DNA of 64,000 nucleotides from NCBI GenBank assembly GCA_010093815.1, contig ML996575.1, one strand, 5' to 3'. Shown piece by piece: positions 1 through 63,564 of the stretch. The notes under the pieces were generated by a model that did no database searches, was not told where the DNA came from, and worked only from the letters and a program-made list of their open reading frames with translations. How positions within the stretch are numbered: the stretch's first letter is position 1; the number at the start of each line of letters is the position of its first letter. The position numbers and the translations under genes are program-made. The DNA is from Pseudovirgaria hyperparasitica (Eukaryota).

Positions 1-1306
1 CAATGGACCGAGATTGGCGCTTGCTATGGTCGGCGCCGGCCGTCTGCCATCCAGCGGCAGAGTCGGCGCCGCTGGTGGCGGGAGAGGGGTCTCGCTGAAC
101 TTGCGCTGCGGCCGGAGCGGATGGAGCAGAGGGTGGAGCTGTGTTGGCAGCGGGCTGTGGCGCCGAAGCCGCTGTAGATTTCGATGCGGCAGATGTGGAT
201 CCCGAGGCAGCTCCGGGCATCTGAGGCATGGCGACTCGGTTCGCAGCAGCAGCGAGACTGGCCCAGGACTTGGGAACAGCAGGCTTCGCAGGAGTAGGGG
301 CCGGGGCCGGGGTAGCCTTTGGTTGCACTGGAGTCGGCTCGGGATCTTTGGGCTTCTCGGGCTGCGTTACATCTTCTTCTTCCTCGACGGCGGCAGCGGC
401 AGCCTCTTCTGATGGCTTCTCTTCAGTAGAGGTGACAGCAGCAGCAACGGGGGCATCTTCAGCGACGTCGATCTCAGCGTTATCAGGAGCTGCAGTGCCG
501 TTGACAGCAGCTGGCGGAGCAGACACCTCAGGCTCAGCATTTGCGTCGGTCGCAGAAGCTTGCTCGTCATCCTCATCAAGCTTGTGTGCCGTCGCCTCAT
601 CGTTGTTACTCAATGATTCGGCCGGAGTATCGTTGGCGGTGGACACCGCTTCAGTGGTGCCTGCGGCTTCGGCGTGGGATGCATCTTCTGCCTCAACCTC
701 AGCATCCTCATCGGAGATGTAACGGAAGATGTCATTCAGGACAAAGTAACCATTCGTCTGCGCGGCAAGTACAAAGGTCTGAACGAACTTCTTGTGCGGT
801 TGTTGCTTGTTGGAGATTTCGCCGATGACTTGGATTACTATGTGTTGATCGGAGCCCTGAGAGTCGACATTGGTAATTCTGACCTTACAGTCTTGGAATT
901 CGAGCTCCTTGATGCGTTCGTTGATGGTCTGTCGAGGGTTGGGGTTAGACATGATCAAGCTAGAGAAGCAGAACCGATATACAATAGTACCTTTTGACCG
1001 ATGCAGACTGCAACCTTCTCCTCTTCAGTACCAGAGACGAATTGGGAGCGTTTGTTGTAGAAGAGCTGAAGACGGATTAGCAAGCTTTTGACATCATGAT
1101 CCATATTATCCGCTACTCACGAAAAGCTTCTCCGGGCTTCGGCTAAGGGTGGTGTAGTATTGCTCGACAAAGTACCAGCCGACCTCATCCTTGGGAATGT
1201 CGCTGCCACCCGATGAAGATTGAGAGGAGACGCCGTCTTTCTCTGTGCTTCCGTAGTTTTGCTGATGAGGTGCGAAGTTGCCGTTTGTAATCTGTTCGGT
1301 AGCCAT
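1..1306 (-). CDS. NTF2-domain RNA-binding protein (G3BP/Nxt3/Bre5-like), 3' end runs off the window
   Basis: Exons 1306-1121, 1065-991 and 928-<1 with GT-AG introns give ...EVGWYFVEQYYTTLSRSPEKLFLFYNKRSQFVSG...RITNVDSQGS...KFVQTFVLAAQTNGYFVLNDIFRY (NTF2 fold), followed by an acidic/Pro-Ala-rich region. Confidence 0.9.
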
Positions 1307-2392
1307 GATTCCGATGCGGTAAAGGTGATGTGGAGTCTTGAACGAAACAGCGATGTGGAAAGTGGGCAGGCAAGGAAGGGTGACGAAAGACTGTCTGAAT
1401 AGATGAGGGCGTCTAAATGAGACAGATGTCTAGTACGTACGCATGTCAGCTTTGTTTGAGGACCTCAAAGCTTACAACGACGTACTCGGAGATCGCGACT
1501 GGGAAGATTCAAAGGTCGAGGTCAAGCTGGGCAAGTAAAGTCGGGGGAGCTTTGCTTGGTAGAGAGGAAACGGAGTGTGCGTGGGCGGTATTATGGATGT
1601 GATGGAGAAGTGTATAGAAGAGACACGATAAGATCTAAGGTCAATTCGCGCGTAGAGAGATGGAGAGAGGAAGTCAGACGTGTCTTGATGCTGAGCAAAG
1701 GTTGTGGGGAGAACGACAATGAATCGAATTCTATCCTAGCCGGAAAAATGAGTGGCGACTAGGGAGCAGGCACCCTAGCTCCCGCAACTAATACCGCCGA
1801 CCGAGCATATAAGATATATCCACGAGCGACAATTGGGCATGCAACATGTATGTGTCGTGAATTTTACATCTGAGTACGAACTATCCACGCAACTATCGTC
1901 ATGACATGAGTCTGCTGTCCGGTCAATTTTTATACATCAAAGCTGGCATGAGCGCCTGCTCCTAATCACCAAATATTTTTCTGCCAAACTCGTGCCTCAG
2001 GCGCCAATTAGAGACCGGAATTGGCGGTAAACCTCACCATTCACAGCATCCGTCAACCAGCATTCCACTGTTTCAGGATCTACGCCATGAAAGCAAATCA
2101 CACACAACGTTAGGTACTGAGCTCATTTTTCCTTGTAACTGTTGGTGTTGTCACCGTTAACAACCGATGCGCCGCGCTTAATTCTCCTTCACAGGCAGTG
2201 GCGAGGAGAGCGTCTCCAAGTGTTCACGGTGCCAGTACAGTATATACAGCGTGCGGACATGTCTGCATGAGTTAATGTATAGAATATATATGACGATATC
2301 ATCTGCCAAGATAATGATGCTTTATACTCGTCAACGTGACTTCATCCCTTCCACCCTTGCAAACGTTCCAAGCATGGTATCTCCCCCCCTTT

Positions 2393-5116: not shown

Positions 5117-7649
5117 TTAATACTGCTCGTAGGCGGGCTCTTTTCCTTTCCTCTCTGAGGTGCCGCTGCTAATCATACGGCCAATCCTGCTCAGTGTGGA
5201 GCGGAGATGGGCTCTCCTCGAGTCTTCTGTACCAGGCCGCTGGATGGGACCATACGACCGGGCAGGAGACGTGAAAGGGTCGGTATTGGCAGGCGATGCA
5301 CGCGAGACAGTCTCGTCACCGTCCATTGGACTGACGCTCTGGTGGCGAGCATAGCCGGCGTTCCTGGATTGCTGCTGCTGTGACGTGGACGAGGACCATG
5401 GACTGGGTCGTGGTAGGGTCGCCTGAATTCGTTCAGCGGCCATGCTGAACGTAAATTCTGATGAAGGGGCTTGCAAGTGCCACGGGACAAGCGGCCGATC
5501 ATTGACTCCGCCAGGCCCGCCCGCAGAGATGAAAGTCTGCGCGCAAAAGTCCTGGCTGGTCGCGCGGACATGGCGACTTGGTCCGCTTTCGGAGCTTTGA
5601 GGCGATAACTGACTGCCCAAGGCTGGTTCCGTCTGCGAGCGGGGAAGAGGAGTGCCCGAGGACGGAATTGGAGGCAGGGGTTTTGTGTATTTGTGACCGA
5701 GACCTGGAATGACAGCGGTGAATGGCATAGGGCTGATGTCTCTGAAGGATGATGTTCCGTCTGGATACGTCTGGGTTGGGCCGTAATATCGGACTGCTGC
5801 TGGCTGGGGAGGATCGTGGCGTGGAGTGAAGAGGCCCGCTTCAGGGTTGAAAGTCTGGCTGGGAGGCGATACACTGTTCGAGGAGTTGTTGCATAGAGAC
5901 GTGGAATGCTGAGCGTGGCTACGTGGCTTGGTTGGAGTTACGGGCATAGACTGATGGGCATCGCTGCTGCCCCAGGGCCAGGGATTGGTGGCAGGTAGGC
6001 ATCCTGATGGCCTGGGGGGATAGGGCAGCCCAGGAGGGGGCTTCGGACAAGACTGTGCAATGGCTGTAGTTGGCGTGGCTGGCAGTCCAGGGCAAGACTG
6101 TGCAATGGCTGTAGTCGGCGTGGCTGGCAGTCCAGGGCAAGACTGTGCAATAGCTGCAGTCGGCGTGGCTGGCAGTCCAGGACAAGACTGTGCAATAGCT
6201 GCAGTCGGCGTGGCTGGCAGTCCCGGAGGCGGTTTGATTGAGTATACCTGGAGAGGCTCCGCATTCTGAACGCCCCTTTTGCCGTAGTCCGGATCGAGTT
6301 GACAGGGGCAGGGAAGACGACGAGACTCAAAGTCGCGATTGGTACAGCTCTTGAGACAGATGCATCTGCTGCGTGGATCTTTCCTGCATTGACATTTCAG
6401 GTCTTGGCTCGTCGATTTGGGAGCAGTCAAGCGGGATGGCGAAGTGCGGGACGGCGAAATGTGGGATGGCAAAGTGCGGGATGGCAAAGTGCGGGATGGC
6501 AAAGTGCGGGATGGCAAAGGGCGGGATGTGTCGGTGGTAGAGTCGGTCGAGTTTGTTGAACTGTGTGTGCTGCCGTCGTGCATCTTGTACACGGCCTTGG
6601 GGATGGTCTGACGACGAAGAAATTCACGTAGCTTATCAGCGACTTCCGCGTGCTGGGAGGAGGAATGTCCGGCATGTTGGATGCTTGTCTGGACATGTTC
6701 TCCGCCATCTGACTGCTGTCGGGCTTTTTCTCGCGTGATGTAGCGATTGATCTCGATGGCAATCATTGCTGGCGCCAGCTTGTTCATCTCAATCAGCCCA
6801 TCCTGCGAGAGCACATGGCGCAAAAGACGGACGGGACCGCGCAACGATTCGACGGCCCTTAGACTGTCGGTGAAAGTTTGAGAGTTTGAGGGATCCGTGG
6901 ATGGAGTGGCTTCTGAGAGCAGGCCGGTGAGGTACTGGTTGATCTTGACGTGCATTTGCAATGCGGCTATCAAGTCCTGTTTCATGAGAAGTAGCCAGAG
7001 ACCATGGAGTCGGGTGACGAGATCCTGAACGGTGCCAACGTCAGGCCAGATGCTAAGATTGGGCCAGGCGACCATTGTTTCGAGGGATATGAAGCCGCTC
7101 CTGAGTCGGAGATGCAGCTCGTCGTAGAGTTGACGTATGCTGGAGCAGGTTGCGTAGAACAGGTAGTCGAACTCGTGGAGAGGACGGCGTCGGTAGTTCT
7201 CCAGACCCAAGGCTGGCCTCTCAGACGTTGCTGGGACCAATGGGCTGAGGGGTCTATCGAGCGAACTGAGTATCCAAGAGAGCTGGGAATTGGTCGCCTG
7301 GACATGGCTACCGAAGAAAGGCTGTATGATGTGGTCAGCTTCAACTGTTTTCTCCCTTGATACTGCGAGATCCAGCTAGACTTACAGGCTGTCTCTCTAG
7401 TGACAGACACGAGACGCAGTCGTTGACGTGCTGAGCAGCGTGCCAGATGGATGCTTGCGCGTTCGATTCGCTCATCTGAGGACGTGTATAATCATGACAG
7501 AAGGGAACGATGCGCAGTGGTTCTAGATGCGTTGACAGGATTGGATTAGTGGCACCAGAGCCAGCAGTACCCGAGCCAGCAGTACCCGAGCCAGCAGGCG
7601 CATCGCCGTTTGGGAGGGTAGAGGTGGGGGGACGGTGCGAACCACTCAT
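5117..7649 (-). CDS. Hypothetical Ser/Pro-rich protein with internal tandem repeats and a short Cys cluster
   Basis: Exon 7649-7386 and intron 7385-7322 (GTAAGT...CAG) join in frame to the 707-aa ORF; no recognisable domain. Confidence 0.65.
6045..6225. repeat. 45-bp coding tandem repeat, about 4 copies (PGLPATPTAAIAQSC)
   Basis: Near-identical units gggcaagactgtgcaat(g/a)gctg(t/c)agt(t/c)ggcgtggctggcagtcca. Confidence 0.95.
6431..6528. repeat. 15-bp coding tandem repeat (SRTLP-like), about 6 copies
   Basis: Repeated gcgggatggcaaagt and variants. Confidence 0.9.
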
Positions 7650-21096: not shown

Positions 21097-21170
21097 GGTT
21101 TCGTGGTGTAGTTGGTTATCACGTCAGTCTAACACACTGAAGGTCCCCAGTTCGAGCCCGGGCGAAATCA
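21097..21170 (+). tRNA. tRNA-Val (anticodon AAC)
   Basis: Cloverleaf: GGTTTCG/CGAAATC acceptor stem, TCAGT-CTAACAC-ACTGA anticodon arm, GTTCGA T-loop; T-rich terminator downstream. Confidence 0.95.
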
Positions 21171-21638: not shown

Positions 21639-22666
21639 TCAGTCATCACTAGCAACACGCCCCTGACGCAACTCCTTCTCGTAGGGTCCCGGCTTCACTT
21701 TATATTGGCGCTTCTTCAACGCTCTTTGCCGCGACCACTGATCAATGACGTCCCATTTGACGCAAGTCCGTTCTCCAGGGGAGCGTATCTCTTTATTCGG
21801 CAGCGACTTCGAATCGGCAATCCATGTGCCAACATACAGTGACACGTCGGGGTTGCACATGACTGTCCGTCGGATCCATTCGATGCAGTGCGCTGTTGTG
21901 TTGTTAGCTGTCAAAAAGCTTAATTGCTTTTTTGAGACTCCACTGACTGAGATGCTCTTCCGAGGCCGCCTCCATTTCTGCGGTTATATTGGGGTAGTAG
22001 TGAGATCGGAGGACCATTCTACGCAGTGCATCCTATGATTGGGTAAGAAGATGTCGTTGTATCATGGCGAGATGACGTACCAGACAGTGCAGTTCGTGAA
22101 AGAATGAGAACACTCCAATATATCTGCCATCATCGAGCTCCACGGTATCTTCGTTGACTACGATGTCTACCCTCTTCAACTCTTCCTCCGTTTGATAGAT
22201 GTTCATGGCTAAATTCATCAGCTGCTCTGGATCCTTGCGTATGCAGCATTGCGATACATACGTTCTAATAGTCGTTCCCAATTCGGTTGCGTGTCATGGG
22301 GATCTCCTATGAATCCATCCTTCTTCACCTCGTCTGCCGTCGGGTACAGCGTCTGGCGCTCGTATGTCAAGAGACTTCGTAGGGGGGCTAGACTGCTATC
22401 AGCGATCTCATGCACAGTCGCCCGAGACTGGAAAATTAGAAATGCTCACAGTAGGACTGTGGTACGTAGCCGTGGTAGTACCAGGCTAATATGGCTATCG
22501 ACGCTGTGATGTATACCGTGGAAAGAATGTTGAAGAGTCGCTGAAAGGAGAAAAGCTTTCGTGTCCGTGGCGTTTCCGGTATGTCGAGACTAGCATTACG
22601 GTCAAGCAGAGGTTGGTTGGATTCAACATCCTCGGCGCCCATCAGTGGTAGCTTAGACTCTTCCAT
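21639..22666 (-). CDS. UstYa-like / DUF3328 oxidase
   Basis: Exons 22666-22450, 22387-22262, 22208-22081, 22032-21948 and 21892-21639. N-terminal TM helix, YSPL, and two HxxHC motifs (FHELHCL; EHLTHCIEWIRRTVMCNPD), then RTCVKWD. Confidence 0.93.
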
Positions 22667-23467
22667 TTCCTCCGTGATATATCTCAGCAGATTCCTCGAG
22701 TACGCTGATGGTGGAGCTCTGTCCTGGAGTAAGGTAACGGTAGAAGCATTTCAATCCAACAAAGAGTCGGTCAGTCCAGACTACTATCAACGCACGAGGA
22801 GCAGCTCACTTCGCAGGGTTGTCCTGTGAACTATGCAGCAATCTCTCGAATCGGAAACTTTGTCCGATGCGAAACGGCCCTATTTTGTGTCCGATATAGA
22901 TGAGAGCAGGGCTCGACTGGTGTGATGAGACCCGTGACTGCAGGCTTTTTTATTACAGCTGTTGGTTGTTCCAGCTACTTCCTATAGATGATTTGCTGGG
23001 TCTCGCGGCGTTTGCATAAACTTGACAAGTAATACCCCCATCAGGACAAAGGTGCGAATGCATGACGATGTGGGACGTTGTGGATCAGCAAAATCTGTGC
23101 CAATCGAAGGAAATGCCGGGTCGATGCGTGGGTGATAGTGACACCAACGTCGTGAGCCTTGCCTCATAGTCCCACTCTATTGGCCTCGTTCGTCTAAGAT
23201 CCAGACGTAAGGCCATACAGACAGCCTTGTATTTCAAGGCAGATAACTGTGCCGCATACCTACAGGCAGGCCGTTCTGGAGGCCTGTCTTCCCAGCCTAT
23301 GACGAGGCCGGTAAGAAGCTTGTACTGGCTCCGTGCAACCTCACGTCCTGTTGACCTAAACGACATATTATAAGTATACTCCTTGCCACGGATACTGGCA
23401 GCCTCTGTTACTCACAACCACTACACCGACTTCTGACCTCAACCGTGTCGAGATTAAACTAGCAACC

Positions 23468-23655
23468 ATGAAGATCATCATCTCTCTTCTGCTACTGGGC
23501 ATATTGGGCGCTACTGCGGCACCGACGAGTATGTTATCACAGCCACGCAAGCAATTCTCAAAGGCTAACAGCTTCAAGAGAACCTCCTACGCGAAGACAA
23601 TGAAGCTTTTGTTCCTATCGTTGCAGACGGAGGACTTGTAGAAGCGCGCGACTGA
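23468..23655 (+). CDS. 45-aa secreted peptide, candidate RiPP precursor (not in the ORF track)
   Basis: Exons 23468-23528 and 23579-23655 (intron GTATGT..GCTAAC..AAG) give MKIIISLLLLGILGATAAPTKNLLREDNEAFVPIVADGGLVEARD*. TATA at ~23368, ACCATG start context, second intron in the 3'UTR at 23659-23713. Confidence 0.75.
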
Positions 23656-24982
23656 ATGGTATGGACCCCTCCTTCTCTGTCCGTGACAGTGACAGTGCTA
23701 ACAACTATTGTAGGTCGGACCGTCAATGCTCAATGATCGACATCTGAGGCTGAAACGCCGGCTATGCTCTTACCGAGGTTACATTGGGGGTGTTGAGTAG
23801 CAAATATTTAGTATTCTTTCTCGCAATCTACACTTTGTTTCCACCAAATCTGAGTCATTCAACGACATGTCGAAGTATTCTCCATTAAGTGGTAGGAAAG
23901 TGTCATCAGTCAAGAGTTGTGGGTAGAAGGATTGATATGTATATCCACTCAGTCTAATGCAGCGGTTCCATGTTGGTTATGAATGCAAGGTAGGTAAGAG
24001 ACAGGGGCATCCAGTCTCGACTGTCATGACCTATGTTGACATTTCGACCAAATTTTCTTTTTCCACTTTTCAGGAATATGAGGCAACGAGACTATACCTT
24101 TTCACGTCCTAGTCGCCCTCTACCAACGACCTCAAATTCAATCTCACCCGCCCCATGTAGAGGGATAGGACCTGTCAAAGCCTCACACGAAGAGCGAGGA
24201 ATATCCCGTCCTCTATACGAGAGTCGGAGAACTGTCTCACGACCTGGTTGATTATCGGAAATTCTGATACTGAGGCTGGTAGTGGCAGAGTGGATACTGA
24301 AGCCGTGTGGGGTCGTGACGGGCCGGAGTTGTACACGGTAGTTATTCACGGAAAGATGAAGCTCCCGGTCTATCCACATATACGAAGATGGGGGTTCATC
24401 AACGATGCAGGGCCGTTGACGATGGCCAGACGGGCCTCCCGAGAGGGATTCCAGTTTCTGTGCTGGGACAGGGACATGGATCAGGGGTGAGTAGCAAGGG
24501 TGACCGTTATCGGCTCCACACGATGCCTGTGATGCGTAACATCTTCGCTTACACTGTACAGGCTTACCTAGCAGCACTCCCTGCAGTATGGCTCTAAAAC
24601 CTTGATCTCCTTCATCTCCCGTGCTGACGCCGTGTTCAGGCGCCTTCCCCATGCAAACAACATTGCGTTATGCTTACATCTCTAACCGGCCACGGTGTTG
24701 CACCGTCCCATGCCCTGTGCACACCGTTCTGGGATGACATCCTACGCCATGCTCTGTCCTCGTTTTCACTGTCTTGTCGCTACAGGGTCTTCTGTTCGCG
24801 GACGTGGCGTATTCTATCTCTTGTACAATCCTTTCGATCCCTTGAGCCTCTTAAATGGCTGGCCAGGTGCTTGAAGTTGACTAGCGCATCAACGTCTTCA
24901 TCTCTAAAGATCAAAGCTTGTGGCAGTAGTTGTTGCCTCACGGTATCTCACTTTAGTGCCTCAGCATCTCCCATATTTCGCT

Positions 24983-26210
24983 ATGGTGTACAACAACCCC
25001 GATGGCATCATTGCTGCCACTGTGATTGTGCAGTTTCTCGTCATTGGCATCGTATGTTTGCGGATCTTATCTCGACGCAAGCAAGAGAAAAAACGTCTCA
25101 TCTCGGATTGGTTGATTTTGGCGGCCACGCTGATGTCTATGGGACTCGCGATTGCACAGATCTATGGTAAGAGGGGGTATATCCTCGAGCCTTTCTGGCA
25201 TTAATTTGAGTGCACTCATACTGATTGGGATTTTTAATAGGAGCTGCGAATGGACCTTTGGGGTTACTGCTGGCTCCAAGGCTCAAAGCCGATCCGTCGC
25301 ACGCGGCCGACATGGTTCAACTTCTCCGAGAAGTAAGTTCAAATATGCTCCTCCGAGTGAGAATGCTGACTCTCCAAAGTATAACTTCTCCTTCATTGTG
25401 ATAGGCATAGCTGCAATCGGACTGATCAAGATATCTGTATCCCTGCTCTATTTACAGATATTCAGCACTCGTAACTTCCGACCGTATATTATAGGGTGGA
25501 CCGTAATCATGGTCATATGGACCATCGGATTCCTACTCACCTTTCTTTCGCTCTGTGGAAGCCATGGAACACTAGCATCCTACAAGTTCACGAATGCGAA
25601 GACCGTGGACAAGTTCTGTGGGACGGAACGAGTAAAGCAGATGGACTTTGCACTTGTTGTGTCTGGTTCTATCACTGATCTGATAACTGTCATGCTACCA
25701 ATACCCATGACATGGTCTCTTCAACTCTCCCTTCGACGGAAAATCTCGATCATTGGCATATTCTTGGTCGGTATGCTGTCTGTCGGAGCCAGTGTAGCCA
25801 GAACATACATCAGTCTGGACTCCAAATTCGGCAAAGGGACGCCCATGGACCAAGGCCTCGGAGTAACTGCGACCTGTCTGTGGACCCTGATAGAGATCCA
25901 ACTTGGAATCCTAGCTGCCTGCTCGTTGACAATTCGACCTATTCTTCACGAAATTGCAGCCCATGGGCCGATCCACAGTCTTCTGACTTCGACAAGAAGT
26001 CTCCTGAGCGGAAGAGGCTCACAAGCTGATACTGGCGCCAGCAGCTTCACCGAGCTTGCCGACGGGAACTCTTTCCGTCGTCGGAGTGAGAGCCGAAGCA
26101 GAAATGGCTCTGCGAAATCCGGCATTGATCGTTACAATGATCCACTGCCGAAGAAGAATGGAGTTATACACGTTTCAACCGACTTTAGAGTGGACACCAG
26201 AGATGCTTGA
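24983..26210 (+). CDS. PTH11-like (fungal rhodopsin-domain) integral membrane protein
   Basis: VCLRILSR, SDWLILAA, IKISVSLLYLQIF, TDLITVMLPIP..WSLQL..RKI and EIQLGILAAC motifs; two introns. Confidence 0.88.
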
Positions 26211-26724: not shown

Positions 26725-27687
26725 ATGTCTATCAGCGTTGGCTCTCCGGAGTGGTACCGCCAGATGAAAGATGTGAAAAGTGATGTGGGCAGACTTACAA
26801 TCAATCATTACGGATTCAAGCAAGCAGCGAACGGCGAGCTGATATTCGCGCCGCTTGACTTTTCCTCGGCACCTCGCAAAGTGCTTGATGTCGCGACAGC
26901 TGACGGTACGGAACCAGGACTCTAGTTGAGTGATTGTCCCTGATAGATAGACCTAGGATTATGGATGCGAGATGTGCAGTCCTCAATACCAGCGCCTCCA
27001 CATGGCGAGCATGTCTTTGTCGGTACCGAAATCAACGAAGCATTCTTTCCCTCCTCTCATCCGGAGAACATCTCATTTGTCCTACAAGACATGAACAAAC
27101 CCGGCCCAGAATCATGGAGCCAGGCGTTTGATCTCGTACACATGCGACTAGCATTGCTGGCTGCCACTTCGCCGCAAGCCGTGATCGAAGAACATATGAA
27201 GTACCTAAAGCCCGGCGCGTGGCTTGTGATTGGCGACTGTGACAGGGTTTGTCCGACGAGCGAAGCTGAGAACCCATACTACCATATGTTCTTCAAGGTC
27301 ATGCGCGCAGTACTGACGAAGATGCGCGCGGATCCAGACGTGGCACTCAAGTCAAAGGCTTGGTTAGAAGAGGCCGGGTTCGAGGATGTACAAGAGCACA
27401 TGGTCATGCGGCAAGTTGGCAAGAGGAATCCGGATGAAACCATGGCTGAAAAAGCAGCTGAATCTGATCTGATCATCACGGCGGGTATGGCAAATAACGC
27501 GAAAGGTGAATCGTAGATGCACACTTTGGGATGTGTAGTCCTGCTAACTTTGACAGGATTGGACTCGTCATTGAAACCCTATACTGATGAGATCTTGGAT
27601 GATTTAGCAGCCAATTTGGGAAAGGAACTGAGAGATCAGGGAGCACTTTTTCCCATGCGGTTCATATGGGGTAGAAAGCCTCAATGA
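26725..27687 (+). CDS. SAM-dependent methyltransferase (LaeA-like/Methyltransf_23 type)
   Basis: VLDVATADG motif I, FDLVHMRL, LKPGAWL, WLEEAGFEDV and C-terminal WGRKP; two introns. Confidence 0.88.
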
Positions 27688-53773: not shown

Positions 53774-54489
53774 ACGTAGACCCTAGGCCCGACTGCGATG
53801 ATCCACTCAGAATTGGTAGCCTGGGGCAGCAATAAATTGTCAGCGGGTAATATCAAATGACTTCTGACAGTATAACGCTGAGTAAATATCGGGCATGGAC
53901 TTAGCCGATCTGCAAACTAGCTACTGTCCAACTTAGAATATGGACATTGTTGACAAAGTTGGTAGATTCGAGAACTTTTTAATGGCAAGCACTAACCAAA
54001 AATCATCGATATGGTTACGTACGTTGTGTACATGTGTACAGTATTAAATGCGTGGACTCTTGTCCACTTTGTTGAAGATCATCACCGTGTCTAGTGGATC
54101 ATGCATTAACCTGGGCATTCTCAGAAAGCATAGAGTAACCAAGGGCACTAGATCTGCAATTCGGACGCACCATGACTTCAAGAGGCCTTTTGCGATGAAA
54201 ACCTCCGAATGCGCCTCGGTCCTCATGCCATCAGCGCTATCTGGGCTGCAAGGAGGGGCACTACTAAACAATCTGCCATAAACATAGGACTTTTTTGACC
54301 ATGCCCTAGCGAATCATACGCTGACCAGTACCACTGGCCTCGAGGGATCCGAGACGAACATCTACCTGGACCTACTGGAGACAGTTTGGACCTTTCGACA
54401 GGGAGGCCATAGCATCTCGTCTTGCTGGAGGACCCTATAGTTCAACGCTCCGATACTTGTATATTTGGTTCATCACACCAGCTTTCACT

Positions 54490-56624
54490 ATGACAGAAAT
54501 ATCAGGAATCGAGAGCCTATCAAGTGAAGAGGCACAAGCTCTTTTGTACGGCCGAATGCACCCATTACCACGCCTATCGAAGGCTCCAGAACAGAGTAAT
54601 GACATTTCTGAAGTTTTGGTCGTTGGAGTAAGTCCTCACGCATTTCTGTCGAATATATACTTACGAAAGCTACAGGCTGGCCCAGCGGGCCTGTTCATGA
54701 CTTTGAACCTCGCTCATTTGGGACTTACCGACACTTCTCTTCTATGTATCGATGCTAAATCTGGTCCGACACCCGCAGGCCATGCCGACGGCCTGAACGG
54801 ACGCACGCTGGAGATCTTTCGCACGGTCCAGATTGAAGGTGACATCCTCCGTGACGCCCCTAGTATATGCAGTTACGCATCCTGGTACCGGCCAAACGGT
54901 GACCCAGACAGCTTCCATAAGGGCTCCGAGCAGATCGCAAACACAGTAGCCCCAGCACGGTACGGTGATTATAAACTTATGCAACAAGGCCGTCTTGAGC
55001 GCGTCTTTTTGCGCGATCTCTTCGACTACTCGACGCGTGGTGTGCAGTATTCAACTCAGTTGGTTGACGTCAATCTTGACGAGACGGATCCGGAACGGCC
55101 AGTGACTGCAGTGGTAGAGACGGACGGACATCGAAGGACTCTACGGACGAAATATCTCATCGCTGCCGACGGTGCTCGGTCTGGCATCCGCCAGAAACTT
55201 AACATCGAGCAAGAAGGACAGAACTTACCTCGCGTATGGGGCGTCATCGACATTGTTGTCGACACCGACTTCCCGGACATACGCAAGTTTACTCAGCTGC
55301 CTGGGCACCTTGGTGAAGGGAGAGGGCACGCGTTCATCATCCCTCGCGAGAAGATGAGCAACGGCGAGCCGATGACACGGTTTTACGTCGACTTGACAGA
55401 CTATTCGGAGTCAACAGAGGGCATGTCGGACACGCGGGCATTCCGAGCGAGCATTACCGTCGACAAAATCATGAAGAAGGTGCGCGAGAAACTACACCCA
55501 TACCGCGTGGACATGAAGAAGGGCACACGACCGATCTGGTGGGCCGCGTACCCCATCGCTCAGAAAACGGCAAAGGAACAAATCGTGCGAGACTCCCAGA
55601 GCCACCCCCGAATCTTTCTCGCAGGCGACTGTACGTCACACCCTCCAAGTAAACCCCTTGCACCGCTAACTTGTCTTTCCCAGCAATGCACTCGCACTCA
55701 CCCTCTCAAGGCCTTGGCATGAACATGGGCATTCAAGACGCCTTTAACCTCTCCTGGAAACTTGCCTACGCTATACATGGCCTCACGGTCTCGCCAACCT
55801 CCCTGCTCGATACATACGAATCCGAGCGCCGCCCGGTCGCCCGCCGCCTCATCCACCTCGACCGCGTATGGAACTCGACCGGCAAGACAGAGCAGCCCAT
55901 CGAGGCGCGCCTGCACGACATGGCAGAGTACATGACCTGCTGCGGCATCGAGTACGGGCCCAGCATGCTCGTCTCGCAGCCCACCAGCGCCGCCGAGCAC
56001 GACTCCAATACCGCATCCCGTCCGCCCAATTCCGCGTCAACGGCGCATGGCCCTGTTTCCGGCACAGACTATCTTCACGGCGTCCTACGACCGGGCCGCC
56101 GTTTGCTCAATATCGCACTGCGACGGTTCGCCGATGGACATGGCTGGGACATACACGACGACTTGCGCGCCGACGGGCGGTACCGGGCTGTTGTGCTCGC
56201 CACAGTGAATTTTCCGCACGGGCTGCGAGATCGAAGCGCTGTGGCGCATGTGTGTGGTGCTACGGTACATGCGTTTGTGGCGGGAGGAGCTCCTATCGTC
56301 GAGGCGGTCATTGTGTATCCCGGTTCGGGGGAGTGTGGGTGGGGCTGGAGGGATGTACCGGAGGCTGTAAAGAAACATTGTGAAATGAGGGTTTACGGGG
56401 CGCAGAGGGAGGAGTATGAGAGGTATGGTGTGGATGTGGACAGAGGCGCTGTGGTTGTTGTGAGGCCGGATGGGGTTGTTGGGTGGGTGGGTGAGCTGGA
56501 TGATGTGCAAGTGATGGACGAGTTTCTTGGGCGGGTGCTGAGGAGAAAGAGTGTTGACGAGCTCGTGGACAGGAGCGAGGCGGTGGATTGTGATATTGGC
56601 AGTCGTGGAGTGCTGTGTGGGTGA
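54490..56624 (+). CDS. FAD-dependent phenol 2-monooxygenase-family aromatic hydroxylase
   Basis: VLVVGAGPAGL (spliced), ADGARS and LAGDSMHSHSP..GMNMGIQDAFNLSWKL motifs; C-terminal VVVRPDG thioredoxin-like domain. Confidence 0.9.
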
Positions 56625-56771
56625 GTTACCTAAGTACGTAGCAGTTGTTCCGAGGACAGCAGGGTCAAGAACGCATCCATTGCTCATCCTAGCATACAGC
56701 CAGCTACTCCATCTTCCGTCATACATTCATCGATCTATCTATACAATCGTCCATGCTTCATGATAACCCCC

Positions 56772-56894
56772 TCACATAACAACACACCAGCAACTCTCGT
56801 CACAGCCACAGCATTCACAAGACTCGCCACACGACGTCTTTGGCCCGGCGGGCTTGATGATGGATATGATGCTCGAAGCGGTGGATGGCGGCAT
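56772..56894 (-). CDS. 40-aa Cys-rich peptide with C-terminal CaaX box (not in the ORF track)
   Basis: MPPSTASSIISIIKPAGPKTSCGESCECCGCDESCWCVVM*. TATAAA at ~57121-57126, 5'UTR intron 57011-56947 (GTACGT..CTAAT..TAG), AAACATG start context. Confidence 0.75.
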   Translation of the reverse strand: MPPSTASSIISIIKPAGPKTSCGESCECCGCDESCWCVVM

Positions 56895-58481
56895 GTTTTC
56901 GAGCTTGACTTTGAAGATGTGGAAATGGAAGTGATTGGGACAGGTGCTATGTGAATGTTATTAGGAGGTGCCATGGGAATGTGTGTAATGAAGAGGGCAG
57001 ATAAGACGTACCGTGTGCGTTGTCTGTTTTGGGATGATATGTGTGTATGGCTGTGTATGTGTGTCTGTATGTCGAAGATGTAGTTATCTCACTCCACGAA
57101 CCACGAGCGCGCAGCCTGCCTTTATACACACTCGCTCATTCTTACATCCCACGTCCCAGCACAGCTCACGCCAGCACTTCCCATCAGGGAGGGACCCGCC
57201 AGACAGCCACAGCCACGCATGAAACGTGGTCTACGCAATTCGCTCGCCCATTTTCAGCTCGCCCATGCCCTGTGAATCCACTATCTGACCAATAACCCAC
57301 TCAACGTAGCTCGCCGCCGGTATACCGCATGCAGCAGCAGGTTTGTAGACTAGCGATTCATACCATACTATACCATACTATGCTGTATCACATCGCAAGG
57401 GCTGTCGTCAAAGCGCCATATCTTGACCGTATACATTTAGGTTCGTCGGGTTTGTCGGGCGGGGGCCTGTGAAGTTCACATTCCACTTTCGCGCCACTAT
57501 GGCCACGGCTTGCCTCTCTCTCATTAGAACGTATCCACGAAATGCCTCATGCTAGATAGAGTGGTGCGTTGGCATGCTGATACTGATGCCGATCTACTTC
57601 AATTTACCTACGCGTTCAGCAATCTGCCAGCAGTACTTAGTGAAAGGTCACGAGCTAAGCTTTCTGCCAAGACAGGGACTGAAGCTTGGTGAAGCTTACG
57701 CGTCGAGGGCCCCACTTGCTTGCTAAGGTTCTGCTGGGCACGCACAATGAGCTGCTGCTGCAGGGCAAGGGGGTGTTCTAGGTCTGGGTGATGCATGGGG
57801 TGTACGGGCTAGTGATTGGATGGCCTGGGTTGTGTATATATCCATGTGAGTTTGGCGGATACTGCGCTGCGGTACAGGCTTGGCATATCAGGAGGATGTT
57901 TATAGAGAGGCCTTGGAGAGGAGAGGATGTAGTCAAGGCATGCAACGCCTATGATGCTTTCTGTGGTAAATTTGGAAGAGCTGACTACAGAGAAGATGCA
58001 AGCTGCGGTCAAGTAATGGCGTTGTGAGTTGTGGGTGGATCCTGTGGCTGAAGGATGGACGGGAGACGCGTAGATGGGTGGATGCAGTACGGCTGAGCGG
58101 CATCGTGGTGTTTGTTTTGGCGTGTGCATGCCACACCTTTCCAGGGAGGCAGGAGGAGTGACATCTTCTCAGGTTGATGTAGTCGGATAGCTGGACATTG
58201 GGTGTGGATATGTTGCTAGTTATGGCTAGTGTAGCGCTGATTTATTGATAGCATGCATAAGGTGGACGCTCAGGACAAGTTTGGAGCATAGTACGACCTG
58301 TATCATGAAGATTGGGGGCTGATTAGAAATTTTGAATATGTGTGAGTCGACGCAAAACGCAGTCTACTTAGATGCTAATCTGACGCCCGAAAGATCTTGA
58401 ACACCATACCATGCAAGTCATCGTCCTATATACAAGGTATCTCCGATCGCTTACTTCTACCGTGCCAACCTGAACGCTTCC

Positions 58482-59514
58482 CTAGATCTTGTGTTTCGCA
58501 GGGTCGATCATGGGGTTGGAGCGCAGGAGTTTTGGTGCCAGCCTGATGTTGTACTCCATTGATAGCTCAGCGTGCTTGTCGCCCTGCAGAGGCACGAAGT
58601 CGACAACGAGGTCGTTCTTGACGGCAAAGACGGAGTCAATGCCAAGGTAGGGGTCGTTGCGTGGGTAGATCTGGTTGACGACGGTGCGGTAGTCCTCGTG
58701 GGTGATCATGAGATGAATATGGGCCGGTCGCCAGGGAGAGCGGTCCATGACATCGAGAAGAACACCAGCAGGGCCTAGGTGTGTGTGTTAGCTGAATGGT
58801 AGCATGGAAATTGCGGAAGCGTGCTTACCATCAGTAGGTAGTGAGTATGGAGTAGGCTTGAGACAGTAGAACCAGTACTCTCCATTCGCATCTGTCCTGA
58901 ACTTGCCCCTCAGATTGTTATCTGACTGGCCTTCAGGGTCTTGGAAGTCGTATTTGCCGTTGCTCGATGCCTGCCAGATGTCGACGACAGCATTCTTCAG
59001 CGGCTTCTGCGTAATCACATCAACGACACGACCGTGCATTTTTGTGACCTGGCCATTGTGAGGGTCTTGGATGATGCTGCCACCGATTTGGCGCCATGGT
59101 GCGTTTGGCGACCAGAAGGGGCCGAGAATTGTGGTTGATGTAGGGACTTCGCCGCTGTCAATGATGACCTTATTCGCGATCTCGTCGACGAGTCTGTAGG
59201 AAGACGAGAAGGGTGAGAACGTGTCGGCCAATCAGATAGGGGCTTGGCACTGCTTACGATTCTAGACCAATCACGTCACAGATGCGGTGGCCCTCATTCC
59301 TCTTGGGTGTGCTAATCTGTCCGATGGAGTTTAAGAATTGCACTCCCATCATCCATTCTTCAGTGGTCAGCTCGACTTCGCGCGCAAAGTCGTGGATATG
59401 CTTGATGAGGCTGCTGAGGACAACCTTTGCGCGTGGATTTGTCGCTGGACCAAAGGAGTCGAGGACTTGGGGAGTGAAGTCGGGGTCGAACTTGTTTGGG
59501 GCGGGAGCGGCCAT
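58482..59514 (-). CDS. Intradiol ring-cleavage dioxygenase, resembling fungal protocatechuate 3,4-dioxygenase (PrcA-like)
   Basis: [39 protein letters not shown] and WRPAHIH Fe ligands; two introns. Confidence 0.9.
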
Positions 59515-60219
59515 TGTGTGTGATTTGTGTGGTATGATAGATATCAGCTGGGGGAGCAGCGCAGTTGAACAGGAGAACCAGGCAGAGAGAACTGAGAAGG
59601 ACGAGAGAATTATCAATCTAGCACGACTCACGCGGCGCAGTTCACAGCTATATAAACAAAGGATGATTCCAGTGCAGCACCATGCCGTGCAGATAGGCCG
59701 GTCGGTTGTCACAGTCTGTACATCCAGTGCTTCACGGCAGATCTGTCGGCTAATAGTTCTTAGGGCTGCGGGTTGTCGGGGGCCCTGGACAACAAGCGAC
59801 AAGCAACGAGGAGAGAGTGGCATCATGCTCGCATAACAATAACGGTATCATGGCCGCATAATTGACGAAACACGGCGTAGGCTTTCATGGTCATCATCAC
59901 TCATCACTCATCACCATCACTTGCCGCTCCATTCGCCGAACACTCCTCAACTCAGGGAACCCCGCAGTCTGGTCTCATTAGCTGCTCCCCTGCCGTCAGC
60001 CCTCTATTACAACCCGCCTCTTAGCTCTCACTGCATGAACGAGTCACGACGTCGTCTTTTTCGGCTACTATTAATGGGATTTACGTCGCCGTGAATATCC
60101 GCCTTCAAATCATGAGGCGCCTAACTACTGGGTCTTCTCTTTGCTCAGCAACCTAGTTGCCTGTTGCTGTACAATATTTGGTGGAAGCGCAAGGCTCGAT
60201 TGATGCTTGTCGGCACAAC

Positions 60220-61411
60220 ATGCTGCATCATTTGATGGTTGGCACATGGACTCCTCCGGGCGCCATCTTCACATTCGAATTCGATGATGAGAAACTCACC
60301 TTGAAGCTTGTCAAGAAGACTGTCATACCGCATGATGAGCCTATATCATGGATGACCTTCAGTGTAAGCTTCCATCTCCACTTTCGACGGCACTGTGGCT
60401 TACAGAATGCAAAAGCATACCAAAAAGACCATATATGGCGCCGCCTTGAAGAAATGGTCAAGCTTCACCGTCAAGAGTCCGACAGAGATTGTACACAATG
60501 GGTCCTTTCCGATGGATCATGATCGTAGGTGTGCGTCTGAAACACCAGTCGCACTCGCTGACAAGTCCATCTAAGCTCGAGCATCCCAAGCAGACACCAG
60601 AACTCGTGCCATCTTTGTTCTTGCAGCAAAGAAGCCTCCATACAACGTCTACGGCAACCCATTCTACGAATATGCCGGACACGGGAACGTATTCTCAGTC
60701 ACCGATGAGGGAGCCTTAAAGGAGAATGTGCAGAATTACGAATACAATGAGCGTGCAGCCATCCACGGCATGGTCTTTGACTCACGCGAAGAGTACATGT
60801 ATTCCGCAGACATGTGGGACAACAAGATCTGGACGCATAAGAAGAACCCAGAGACCGGCCATTTGCACACGGTCGGCAGTGTCAATGCCCCTGCCTCAAA
60901 TGATCACCCCAGATGGGTTGCTCTTCATCCAAAAGACACGTATCTGTACGCCCTCATGGAATCTGGCAATCGTCTGGGCGTATATGTCATAGACGAACAG
61001 TCTCATCTGCCGATATTCACGTACATCACGTACCCCCTGCTACCACCTGGAATGGACAGGTCTTTCCCAAAGATGTATCGATCAGACGTCGTGTTCTTGT
61101 CACATAGTGCCAAGTATCTCTTTGCTACTGCACGATCCAATAGCGCCTCACTTACTGGGTATATCTCCGTGTTCGAGCTTGGTCCGTCCGGTAACATTGT
61201 GCGCCATATATGTATGAATCCTACACCAACTAGTGGAGGCCACTCCAATGCGATCAGTCCATGCGATTGGAGCGACGAATGGTATGCGCTTACCGATGAC
61301 GAAAAGGGTTTCATTGAGATATATCGCTGGAACGAAGGGTTTCTGGGAAGGGTCGCACATTGCGATGTTCCAGAGCCAGGCTTTGGGATGAATGCAATTT
61401 GGTATGATTAG
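60220..61411 (+). CDS. 3-carboxy-cis,cis-muconate cyclase (CMLE, beta-propeller)
   Basis: MLHHLMVGTWTPPGAIFTF.FDDE..EPISWMTF, IHGMVFD, HPRWV and GFGMNAIWYD match my recollection of Neurospora CMLE; two introns. Confidence 0.92.
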
Positions 61412-61890
61412 GCAAGAAAGCTGCATAGACGGAGATAGACGGCATGTATACGAAACAGAAAGATGTCATTATCCGAGTCGCGAGAACGTGCACATCTCAC
61501 CCAATGTGGCCGCCACCAACCAGCCGCCCTAAATGCCGAAGCCAGGGGCCGGGGTCTTCTCCGGACCTTAGCGTTAGCCTAGCGCAACTCCCCACATCTA
61601 GCCCAGCTTACCCTTACCCTCCTCTTCCCGTCCCCACCGTCAGGCCTCAGAGCTCTACCAAAGGCTGCACGTTGACGCAGATCGAGACCGCATACACTAA
61701 CCGGCAACCGGCTTCGGTCTGGTGGGCCTTCAGAGTGAAGATGAAAGATGGCGACCATCGATCATTCCAAAACAACAAACATCTCAAATCCAACCACTCG
61801 TCAAAACCTATGTGATTCAGATTCTCACCTTGCCGACCATACCTAGCGAATAAGCATTGCCACCGCACCAGATAAGTCCTTGACACGAAC

Positions 61891-63564
61891 ATGGCACCTC
61901 AAGCTGGCATTCTCTATGTAACGATGGCCCCCCAGGCATCACTGCCTGCAGCTCAATTCCACGATTGGTACGACAACGAACATGGTCCCCTTCGATTGCG
62001 CCTTCCCTACATCACGAATGGCTTCCGCTATCGTGCCAATGACATGGATGGGAAAGACCCGACAAAGGAGCCGGAATGGATGGCTGCATACGACGTGACA
62101 GACATGAATGAGATGACCAAGGAACAGTATACGAGGCTTCGCCGGGAACCAATACAGACACAACGAGAGCGGGATACAATGAAGCAGATCAAGGTGGACA
62201 GGAAATTTTACGATCTTGTACTTGTCCGTACATCATCAAATTTTGAAGATATAGAACAAATTGGTGCACAAACGAAGGACGTAGCGAGCGTGCTTGTTGC
62301 GCGTATATTCACCCTAAAAGAAGGAGCAAAGGACAAAGAAGAAGAGTTCCTGAAGTGGTACGACGAGGAGCATTTGCCCATGCTGGAGAAGGTTCCCGGT
62401 TGGCGTCGTGGACGTGTTTACAAGTCCAGCTCGATCGAGCCCGTCAATGAGGTGCAATATCTTGCTCTGCACAACTATCTACCGGAGAATGGCTTGGGAG
62501 GAGAGGAATTCCAAGCCGCCATATCAACACCATGGAAGAAAGACATCGTCGCGAATGTGATTGATGACAGGTCAAGGCGTACATTTGACTTGTACTACAC
62601 ATTCGGTCCAGCTCCACGAGATCTCGCAGCGCCAGCTTCCTTAGACGCGCTTGCGTCTTGGAACTACTCAGACGGCGTGACCAAAACATACAAGGAGAAA
62701 GAGCGTGCAATCGTGGAGTCGTATGTCACAACTGCTGATGGTGCGGTACTTCCCTATCGTCTTGAGGGCTCTACGAACCCAGAAGCTCCTCTGATCATTC
62801 TCTGCAACTCCGTGCTGGTGACATGGGGCATATGGGATGCATTCGTTGAACACTTCTTATCCGACCCCAAAAACCAACACTTCCGTATCCTGCGCTACAA
62901 CTCACGTGGCCGCACCGCAAACACCGGCTCCCAGAACATCACTCTCGATGTGCTCGCAGCCGACATAATCACCATTCTCGACGCTCTGCGCGTCCCGAAA
63001 GCCGCTAGTCTTTTCGGCGTTAGCCTCGGCGGCGCAACAGTTCTCAACGCCGCTCTCAAGTATCCGTCTCGCGTTGGCTCGTTCATCTCCTGCGATACTA
63101 ACTCCAAGTCGCCCGCAGGCAACAGCACAGCTTGGGCCGAACGCATCGATATCGCAGAGAAACAGGGCATCAAAGCGCAGTCTGGCGAGCCGTTGGTCGG
63201 CTCCGAGCTCGCCGAGAAGACGGTGCGTCGCTGGTTCGTCCCCGAGTCGTATGATGGCGGCGTTAGCGAGAAAGAGATCCAGCGCGTCAAGGACATGGTA
63301 GCAAGCAACAGCCTAGATGGCTTCAAGAAGGGCGTCAGAGCACTGTTCGACTACGACGTGGAAGGTCTCATGCGATCCTCCAAGGTAAAGGGTGCATTTG
63401 TCGTCGGCGCGGGAGATGGTGTGCTGCCGAAAACGATGGCGGAGATGGCGAAGAACTACGGAGACGGTGTTCATTTGGCGGTCATCGATGGTGCGGGACA
63501 TTTGCCTATGGTTGAGAAACCGAGGGAATTTGCAGACGTGGTGGAGAGATTTATGGCTGGCTAG
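61891..63564 (+). CDS. EthD-like x2 + alpha/beta-hydrolase fusion (3-carboxymuconolactone hydrolase/decarboxylase or enol-lactonase-like)
   Basis: Two WY..EH repeats (FHDWYDNEH, FLKWYDEEH); hydrolase GVSLGG and GAGHLP motifs; intronless 557-aa ORF. Confidence 0.85.
   Translation: MAPQAGILYVTMAPQASLPAAQFHDWYDNEHGPLRLRLPYITNGFRYRANDMDGKDPTKEPEWMAAYDVTDMNEMTKEQYTRLRREPIQTQRERDTMKQIKVDRKFYDLVLVRTSSNFEDIEQIGAQTKDVASVLVARIFTLKEGAKDKEEEFLKWYDEEHLPMLEKVPGWRRGRVYKSSSIEPVNEVQYLALHNYLPENGLGGEEFQAAISTPWKKDIVANVIDDRSRRTFDLYYTFGPAPRDLAAPASLDALASWNYSDGVTKTYKEKERAIVESYVTTADGAVLPYRLEGSTNPEAPLIILCNSVLVTWGIWDAFVEHFLSDPKNQHFRILRYNSRGRTANTGSQNITLDVLAADIITILDALRVPKAASLFGVSLGGATVLNAALKYPSRVGSFISCDTNSKSPAGNSTAWAERIDIAEKQGIKAQSGEPLVGSELAEKTVRRWFVPESYDGGVSEKEIQRVKDMVASNSLDGFKKGVRALFDYDVEGLMRSSKVKGAFVVGAGDGVLPKTMAEMAKNYGDGVHLAVIDGAGHLPMVEKPREFADVVERFMAG

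Follow-up and report, generated by a model that had tools for sequence, protein, structure and literature searches.

The locus

We analysed 64,000 nucleotides (nt) of contig ML996575.1 from Pseudovirgaria hyperparasitica (assembly GCA_010093815.1); this whole stretch is referred to as the window. It holds a UstYa/DUF3328 gene on the minus strand and, divergent from it on the plus strand, a spliced micro-gene whose product would be a peptide of 45 amino acids (aa) with a signal-peptide-like N-terminus. An original prediction, made from the sequence alone, had proposed that the two form a minimal system for a ribosomally made peptide that is modified after translation (RiPP), with the UstYa protein as oxidase and the peptide as its single-core precursor. 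The observation of a hidden peptide gene beside a UstYa oxidase is confirmed, and the interpretation placed on it is partly supported. Coordinates are collected in Table 1.

The UstYa gene has an 810-nt coding sequence for 269 aa, with HELHC at residue 152 and HLTHC at residue 184. A public protein of 261 aa, P0001 (hypothetical protein EJ05DRAFT_501909, P. hyperparasitica, Dothideomycetes, Acrospermales), corresponds to our model from its second Met onwards and is otherwise identical to it. The Pfam profile PF11807 (UstYa) matches P0001 with 121.6 bits (cut-off 25; E 5.6e-35; profile positions 17-220 of 220), and the last exon by itself matches it with E 1.1e-12. By this profile match the oxidase belongs to PF11807, and the exon model, the match and the RNA-derived joints described below all agree with the predicted five-exon DUF3328 gene carrying both HxxHC motifs. 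A single hydrophobic 19-mer (Kyte-Doolittle mean 1.74), preceded by R/K residues, is found near residues 44-62; the protein is predicted to have one N-terminal transmembrane helix and a lumenal HxxHC domain, a layout like that of the DUF3328 hydroxylase CctR. HELHC and HLTHC are invariant in all six aligned orthologues (P0001 alignment), as are four Cys residues, and an N-x-T sequon is present in four of the six. The close relatives fall into five clusters at 43-50% identity (Phaeosphaeriaceae/Stagonospora sp., Karstenula, Paraphaeosphaeria, one Logan protein and Whalleya), within a wider family of 1574 representative clusters at E <= 0.001. The alignment found no relative in a PDB sequence search (best E 0.37) and no match among prokaryote genome contigs and viral contigs. 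The proteins P0002, P0157, P0003, P0004, P0162, P0006 and P0007 are found in Stagonospora/Phaeosphaeriaceae sp. SRC1lsM3a, Phaeosphaeria sp. MPI-PUGE-AT-0046c, Karstenula rhodostoma, Paraphaeosphaeria sporulosa and P. minitans, Whalleya microplaca and Clonostachys spp. Several mycoparasites or hyperparasites are among the organisms with this UstYa clade or its nearest relatives (P0004, P0162, P0007 and P0170-P0173 among the proteins), namely P. hyperparasitica, Paraphaeosphaeria minitans and Clonostachys spp.; the pattern is anecdotal.

The start codons of the two genes are 801 bp apart, as expected from the shared divergent region of about 800 bp noticed earlier. The TATA box and good start context claimed for the micro-gene are also found: TATAA (23369-23373) precedes the ATG by 99 bp, and position -3 is occupied by A. 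A collection of 5.8 billion protein clusters gave no candidate among proteins of 31-100 aa when queried with the 57-aa unspliced open reading frame (ORF), which has the first 20 residues of the product. Because the neighbouring UstYa protein of the same genome is present in that collection, we regard the micro-gene as hidden in public annotation, in line with the claim that it is unannotated. Neither of its two peptide exons matched a Pfam family.

Both genes are transcribed and spliced

Four public sequencing runs cover the stretch. Two of them, X1 and X2, look like DNA runs; the other two, X3 and X4, share one sample and one study and are listed without a stated kind. Contigs of X3 and X4 carry joints exactly at all six predicted introns (four in the UstYa gene and two in the micro-gene), and those of X1 and X2 carry none. 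Because exactly those introns are skipped, the X3 and X4 contigs derive from spliced RNA. In these contigs the UstYa introns read CT..AC on the plus strand and the micro-gene introns GT..AG. Contig 16 of X3 (690 nt) consists of 23414-23528, exon 2 and 23713-24208, with both micro-gene introns removed, and its first ATG is that of the micro-gene. Contig 15 of X3 (1665 nt) carries the spliced UstYa gene from 21423 up to 23355. In X4, the whole locus is merged in one contig (contig 19), which is continuous over 22450-23528. Thus the RNA confirmation of splicing that the original prediction had called for was obtained at all six introns in both X3 and X4, and the spliced micro-gene, with its 45-aa product, its coding intron and its intron in the 3' untranslated region (UTR), stands as described. 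That the two genes are spliced in the same RNA-derived assemblies counts in favour of a functional pair. The contigs are unstranded; they give presence and splice sites, and not ends, levels or co-regulation.

RNA-derived contigs span most or all of the 801-bp divergent region, and because of this coverage the UstYa transcript may have a long leader; contig ends are not transcript ends. Upstream of the ATG the UstYa RNA contig extends for about 690 nt and stops some 60 bp short of where the micro-gene contig begins. Contig 15 of X3 skips 50 nt in this leader (22760-22809, minus strand), with ends GT..TG rather than GT..AG, and X4 keeps them. The skip and the long upstream extension could stem from an unusual intron in a long leader, from a transcript that overlaps, or from an artefact of assembly.

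The RNA contigs also join two more plus-strand introns, 24486-24560 and 24586-24639 (within 24385-24800), which probably belong to the 5' part of a Fung_rhodopsin (PTH11-like) gene at 25134-26207. Contig 19 of X4 runs on through these introns and beyond 24800, and the micro-gene has an intron after its stop codon and about 0.5 kb of 3' sequence. Such features would suit a long leader or non-coding RNA, for instance that of the Fung_rhodopsin gene, in which the 45-codon frame would be an upstream ORF without a product. We consider this very improbable, given that the X3 micro-gene is a separate 690-nt contig and that the peptide is conserved at the amino-acid level, with only synonymous change in its core, at loci whose downstream DNA is unrelated (see below).

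The pair is conserved in other lineages

Metagenome contigs were scanned with A1, an alignment of six UstYa proteins (P0001 and the five close-relative clusters), and 15 loci were obtained. Three of these, L001, L012 and L002, are UstYa orthologues; the other 12 are paralogues at 27% identity, from three distinct places. The UstYa protein of L001 is 43% identical to P0001 and 52-57% identical to the Pleosporales proteins P0002-P0005, and that of L002 is 50% identical to P0001 and 57-59% to P0002-P0005 (C-terminal part). Both keep the two motifs HELHC and HL|THC, and the orthologues share intron positions. L012 and L001 are closely related (82-95% DNA identity by segment), and so these loci and the window make four loci but three lineages.

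A tblastn search with the spliced window peptide gave matches upstream of the UstYa gene, on the opposite strand, in L001 (E 0.04) and L012 (E 0.20). In all four loci whose upstream DNA is long enough, a divergent micro-gene lies upstream of the UstYa gene. The proposal was to be tested by looking for a similar peptide gene next to orthologous DUF3328 genes, and one is present in each of the three foreign orthologous loci obtained. The ATG-to-ATG distances are 522 bp (L001), 537 bp (L012) and 562 bp (L002), against 801 bp in the window, and each foreign micro-gene has TATAA 64-71 bp upstream (99 bp in the window) and A at -3. The signal-peptide exon is 61, 61 and 70 nt long in L001, L012 and L002, with the same phase as the 61-nt exon of the window; it is followed by a phase-1 GTATG intron of 53, 53 and 47 nt (50 nt in the window), and the peptides have 43, 43 and 56 aa (45 in the window). 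Exon 2 ends in ...VPIQADGGVDYS in L001 and L012 and in ...SPVQVDGGVDYS in L002. Unless the intron is removed, the start codon and the conserved C-terminal motif stand in different reading frames in all four loci.

With a profile made from the three foreign peptides, window exon 2 ranked first among 3135 segments from the six-frame translation of the 64-kb window (E 0.017; 0.94 for the runner-up). When one peptide at a time was left out and the profiles were run against 9596 six-frame segments (189 kb), the held-out exons were in every case the best non-training matches, with E values of 1e-4 to 7e-2 and the next at least 0.69. In none of the 12 paralogous UstYa loci did a match of the peptide profiles reach an E value below 0.8. 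A crude scanner for signal peptides and introns detected nothing like the micro-gene in four of these (L003, L009, L011 and L013); its sensitivity is low, as it missed the true intron end in the window.

The micro-gene is conserved at the protein level. The 13 core codons of L001 and L012 differ by two synonymous and no non-synonymous changes, and all six non-synonymous changes fall in the signal or spacer; identity is 95% and 90% in the exons, 85% in the intron and 82.5% in the sequence after the stop codon. The codons for DGG differ among the four loci. Judged by these codon patterns, selection acts on the protein. The flanks of L002 and L012, which are about 0.8-1.25 kb long, gave no tblastx match to the window at E <= 1e-2, and their ORFs matched no Pfam family. 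The conserved pairing of UstYa orthologues with the micro-gene, as read from these loci, is new, and it materially strengthens the interpretation of the two as enzyme and substrate.

Three smaller features of the loci were noted. L001 and L012 have a GTAAG donor 57 nt beyond the stop codon, with a CTGAC...TAG end about 60 nt later in L012 (L012:~960-1025, minus; L001:1-~30, minus), and the intron after the stop codon may be a conserved feature of these micro-genes. In the window the TGA is directly followed by an ATG, and removal of the 3'UTR intron opens a 29-codon ORF (23656-23803, plus strand); it is probably not coding, as the matching stretch of L001 and L012 changes, by eye, mostly non-synonymously. 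A 15-nt element, TCGGACTCCGATCTC, with the palindrome TCGGA-C-TCCGA, lies 185-193 bp before the micro-gene ATG in L001, L012 and L002. Its window counterpart is TCGGA-N7-TCCGA at 22851-22867, 184 bp from the UstYa ATG. The palindrome resembles a CGG...CCG site at which a zinc-cluster regulator would act on the shared promoter.

Table 1. Features of the UstYa gene, the micro-gene and the region between them (window positions unless a locus is named)
Feature	Position	Strand	Description
UstYa/DUF3328 gene	21639..22666	minus	5 coding exons, 269 aa, PF11807 match, RNA-derived joints
UstYa gene exons	22666-22450, 22387-22262, 22208-22081, 22032-21948, 21892-21639	minus	all introns GT..AG
Divergent region between start codons	22667..23467 (801 bp)		TATAA and TCGGA-N7-TCCGA palindrome
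Micro-gene coding exon 1	23468..23528 (61 nt)	plus	begins with the ATG; Met and signal-peptide-like stretch, 20 codons + 1 nt
Micro-gene coding intron	23529..23578 (50 nt)	plus	phase 1, GTATGT...GCTAAC...AG; joint 23528>23579 in X3 and X4
Micro-gene coding exon 2	23579..23655	plus	acidic spacer and conserved core (VPIVADGGL...), TGA 23653-23655
Micro-gene 3'UTR intron	23659..23713 (55 nt)	plus	GT..AG; joint 23657>23713 (cut +1) in X3 and X4
Remaining 3' part of micro-gene RNA contig	23714..24208	plus	X3 contig 16 piece 23713-24208
15-nt palindrome element	L001:~440-454, L012:~1400-1414, L002:~1655-1669 (approximate)	minus	

Anatomy of the peptides

By eye, all four peptides have K or R at position 2, a hydrophobic run of 13-15 residues, small residues at -3 and -1, and then x-Pro. 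This part is followed by a variable, acidic spacer of about 10 to 23 residues and by a C-terminal core, P-[IV]-x-[AV]-D-G-G-[VL], conserved in all four; the tail after the core is VEARD in the window and DYS in the other three. The L002 spacer contains a threefold 15-nt unit (AEDKS, AEDKS, AEDKP; AEDK[SP]) at L002:~1300-1356 (minus strand), and the comparison indicates a leader part that grows by small duplications next to a fixed core. Of EDNEAFVPIVAD, the C-terminal stretch ...VPIVADGGL... is conserved, but the segment as a whole is not.

The core is unrepeated and no KR site occurs in any of the four peptides, which bears out the claim of a single core in a precursor without Kex2 repeats. 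In L001 and L012 the mature part is free of K and R, and Kex2 release is therefore excluded for these two. Two further suggestions of the original prediction were rejected. Cleavage at the monobasic LLR and EAR sites is not conserved, as these two mature parts have no basic residue, and a Phe-based, victorin-like chemistry is not conserved either, as the window Phe aligns with Leu in the other three peptides. Tyr is absent from the window peptide, as had been said, but this is not general, since the other three end in DYS. With no aromatic residue conserved, the Tyr-based cyclisation of dikaritins cannot be a chemistry shared by all of them. The mature peptides also have no conserved Cys, His or Met, and none of these residues occurs in the mature part of the window peptide.

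Function of the pair

According to the accessible text of PMC12435403, DUF3328 enzymes are membrane-anchored, O2-dependent binuclear copper homodimers with a cytosolic N-terminus and a lumenal helical HxxHC domain (Golgi, endosomes, vacuole), the copper- and O2-dependent homodimer being known for CctR, ApnU and AprY. They are described there as hydroxylating, halogenating, isomerising or cyclising peptides at C(sp3)-H bonds. DUF3328 genes are most numerous directly beside precursor genes, as stated in the accessible part of PMC7329392.

On this background we propose the following scheme for the window pair. Both genes would be read outward from their shared region of about 0.8 kb. The micro-protein, once translated, would enter the endoplasmic reticulum by its N-terminal signal peptide, which would be cut near ...ATA/AP. 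The oxidase would be a type II membrane protein whose N-terminus faces the cytosol and whose copper domain, with the two HxxHC motifs, lies in the lumen; there, in the secretory pathway, it would meet the 28-residue propeptide and oxidise C(sp3)-H bonds of the P-[IV]-x-[AV]-D-G-G-[VL] core. Because no aromatic residue is conserved, the expected chemistry would be a hydroxylation, desaturation or cross-link on aliphatic or acidic core residues (Pro, Ile/Val, Asp) and not the Tyr ether of ustiloxin. The acidic spacer would serve as a leader, to be removed by proteases other than Kex2. Because the two products would meet in the lumen, because the divergent 1:1 pairing is conserved and because DUF3328 genes peak beside precursors, the best reading of the micro-protein is as the substrate of the oxidase. 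We give about even credence to a two-gene unit made of a solo UstYa/DUF3328 enzyme and a 45-codon gene for its peptide substrate, RiPP-like, single-core and Kex2-independent. Conserved linkage, the shared secretory compartment and family precedent make up the whole of the evidence for the enzyme-substrate relation. No rival substrate gene was seen in the window: among the ORFs scanned there is none resembling a Kex2-processed repeat protein (KEP), and among the 73 long ORFs scanned no domain of a non-ribosomal peptide synthetase (NRPS) or polyketide synthase (PKS) and no tyrosinase was found, the scan covering unsplit ORFs from about 40 aa upwards.

The micro-gene might instead encode an ordinary secreted signal, effector or antimicrobial peptide that is never modified, the pair being held together by a shared bidirectional promoter and co-regulation. 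A signal peptide and a conserved C-terminal motif are what unmodified secreted peptides also have, the peptides offer neither a conserved aromatic residue nor a processing site to fit known UstYa chemistry, and the palindrome that L001, L012 and L002 all keep in the region between the genes suggests that the two are regulated together. However, adjacency and orientation are kept in all four loci, down to 43% UstYa identity, when the sampled flanks are not shared; the catalytic domain and the peptide are predicted to lie in the same lumen; and DUF3328 enzymes are known peptide modifiers whose genes cluster beside those of their substrates. On balance we think this alternative unlikely, though it deserves serious weight.

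A role of the micro-protein as an accessory partner of the oxidase, be it a chaperone, a regulator or a donor of electrons or copper, appears to us distinctly improbable. The strict 1:1 pairing would suit a subunit, and the authors of the CctR study hypothesise, in the accessible text of PMC12435403, an accessory protein that delivers electrons or Cu(I). Such delivery is unlikely here because no Cys, His or Met is conserved in the mature peptides; moreover, the spacer is highly variable in length and sequence, and other sampled UstYa loci, those of the paralogues, are without such a gene (none better than E 0.8).

Several points weigh against the micro-protein as substrate. The RNA evidence comes from one sample, one study and unstranded contigs, and speaks to presence rather than co-regulation, and translation of the peptide and its modification by the UstYa protein are steps that we infer. 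The foreign loci are unannotated metagenome contigs read from DNA alone, and they bring the lineages to three only. A shared bidirectional promoter could by itself preserve adjacency. There is no Kex2 site or other recognisable cleavage site to release the core, and no aromatic residue is conserved: the window Phe is Leu elsewhere, and the window peptide lacks the tail Tyr of the other three. Nor does a transporter, a tyrosinase or any other tailoring gene visibly accompany the pair from locus to locus (L002 and L012 flanks of ~0.8-1.25 kb). Finally, DUF3328 enzymes also act on non-ribosomal peptides, e.g., cyclochlorotine (accessible text of PMC12435403).

Comparison with known systems

One of the closest parallels is asperipin-2a, made by the precursor AprA and a single DUF3328 cyclase, AprY; as proposed for the window pair, there is one DUF3328 enzyme per precursor gene (PMC7329392, accessible text). 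AprY is reportedly copper- and O2-dependent and dimeric (PMC12435403, accessible text) and of the same Pfam family as the window oxidase, and AprA has a signal peptide. AprA differs in its Kex2-processed repeats and ether-linked Tyr cores, whereas the pair has one core and no repeat, dibasic site or conserved Tyr.

Ustiloxin and phomopsin (UstA/UstYa/UstYb, and PhomA with five UstYa-family genes) involve UstYa oxidases that carry two HxxHC motifs and work on peptides of the secretory pathway. The phomopsin core YVIPID has the residue types V, I, P and D in common with the window core. The UstYa-family enzymes of the phomopsin pathway reportedly install dehydro-amino acids, to go by the title of Sogahata et al. 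2021, which would be a loose precedent. Those systems have many Kex2-flanked repeats, a tyrosinase, a methyltransferase and several DUF3328 genes, as far as the accessible text of PMC12048977 describes them; none of these is seen beside the window pair except a methyltransferase-like ORF 3.3 kb away. CctR, the cyclochlorotine hydroxylase, resembles the layout predicted for the window oxidase in its disordered N-terminus, single transmembrane helix, lumenal helical HxxHC(x)nHxxHC domain and conserved Cys residues, and is a precedent for C(sp3)-H hydroxylation without Tyr (both from the accessible text of PMC12435403). Unlike the proposed substrate, that of CctR is a non-ribosomal cyclic peptide, and no NRPS was seen in the window ORFs scanned. 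The lichen UstY clusters of clans R1 and R2 also have DUF3328 genes without a repeat precursor, with a single core raised as a possibility (PMC12048977, accessible text); no precursor gene was identified there, whereas the window pair offers a conserved, RNA-supported candidate. A more distant likeness is to the split BURP-domain cyclases of plants (burpitides), which the accessible sources describe as copper-dependent oxidative peptide modifiers with a separate precursor gene; they are of unrelated fold and kingdom and make cross-links on aromatic residues.

Measured by the marks of a dikaritin cluster, the pair shows proximity of DUF3328 and putative precursor genes in all four loci and lacks repeats, Kex2 sites and a core Tyr. 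It is thus not a dikaritin cluster as defined; nevertheless, it may work like one. Nor does the peptide have the tandem repeats with dibasic flanks of a KEP. Five core-motif strings were not found in three supplementary files, possibly incomplete, of the KEP survey.

Fungal RiPP mining seeks annotated signal-peptide proteins with Kex2-flanked repeats near DUF3328 genes. By the accessible text of PMC7329392, only 31.8% of 9399 DUF3328 genes lie within 15 genes of a repeat precursor, and a 2025 lichen study calls the absent precursor of UstY clusters a "mystery", with a single core as one possibility (PMC12048977, accessible text). No UstYa-paired single-core micro-gene is described in the literature searched; many chemistry journals lie outside its coverage, and so prior description is possible. 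We tentatively suggest, with somewhat less than even confidence, that the pair is the first recognisable example of a new DUF3328 precursor architecture: a micro-gene, spliced and absent from annotation, that encodes a signal peptide, a variable acidic leader and a single conserved C-terminal core, has neither repeats nor Kex2 sites, and is served 1:1 by a solo oxidase with Tyr-independent chemistry. If such hidden micro-genes are common, they could explain part of the roughly two-thirds of DUF3328 genes with no repeat precursor within 15 genes, as well as the missing precursors of the lichen UstY clusters. The pair is an RNA-supported, cross-lineage candidate that gene callers missed, and the two-gene system is small enough for a direct co-expression test. 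A positive result would further suggest DUF3328 chemistry on aliphatic residues of a ribosomal peptide, because the core has no conserved aromatic residue. The pair also supplies a search recipe, i.e., a spliced signal-peptide micro-ORF within about 1 kb of, and divergent from, an orphan UstYa gene.

Surroundings of the pair in the window

A major facilitator superfamily gene lies at 2.4-4.4 kb. The sole nearby candidate for a tailoring gene is a Methyltransf_31-like ORF at 26947-27513, 3.3 kb from the pair. Between a GH3 gene and the UstYa gene there is a tRNA-Val(AAC) gene (21097-21170, plus strand), which is multi-copy, since DNA contigs break there and depth doubles. A 752-codon frame at 5120-7375 (minus strand), with no Pfam match, contains 3.9 copies of a 45-bp unit (the 15-aa repeat PGLPATPTAAIAQSC) and 6.5 copies of a 15-bp unit (PSRTL); it was rejected as a KEP because it has neither a signal peptide nor KR sites. 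Farther away, 54325-63561 holds genes for a phenol-hydroxylase-type flavin adenine dinucleotide (FAD) monooxygenase, a catechol dioxygenase, a lactonase-like propeller and an alpha/beta hydrolase, and looks like an aromatic-catabolism cluster.

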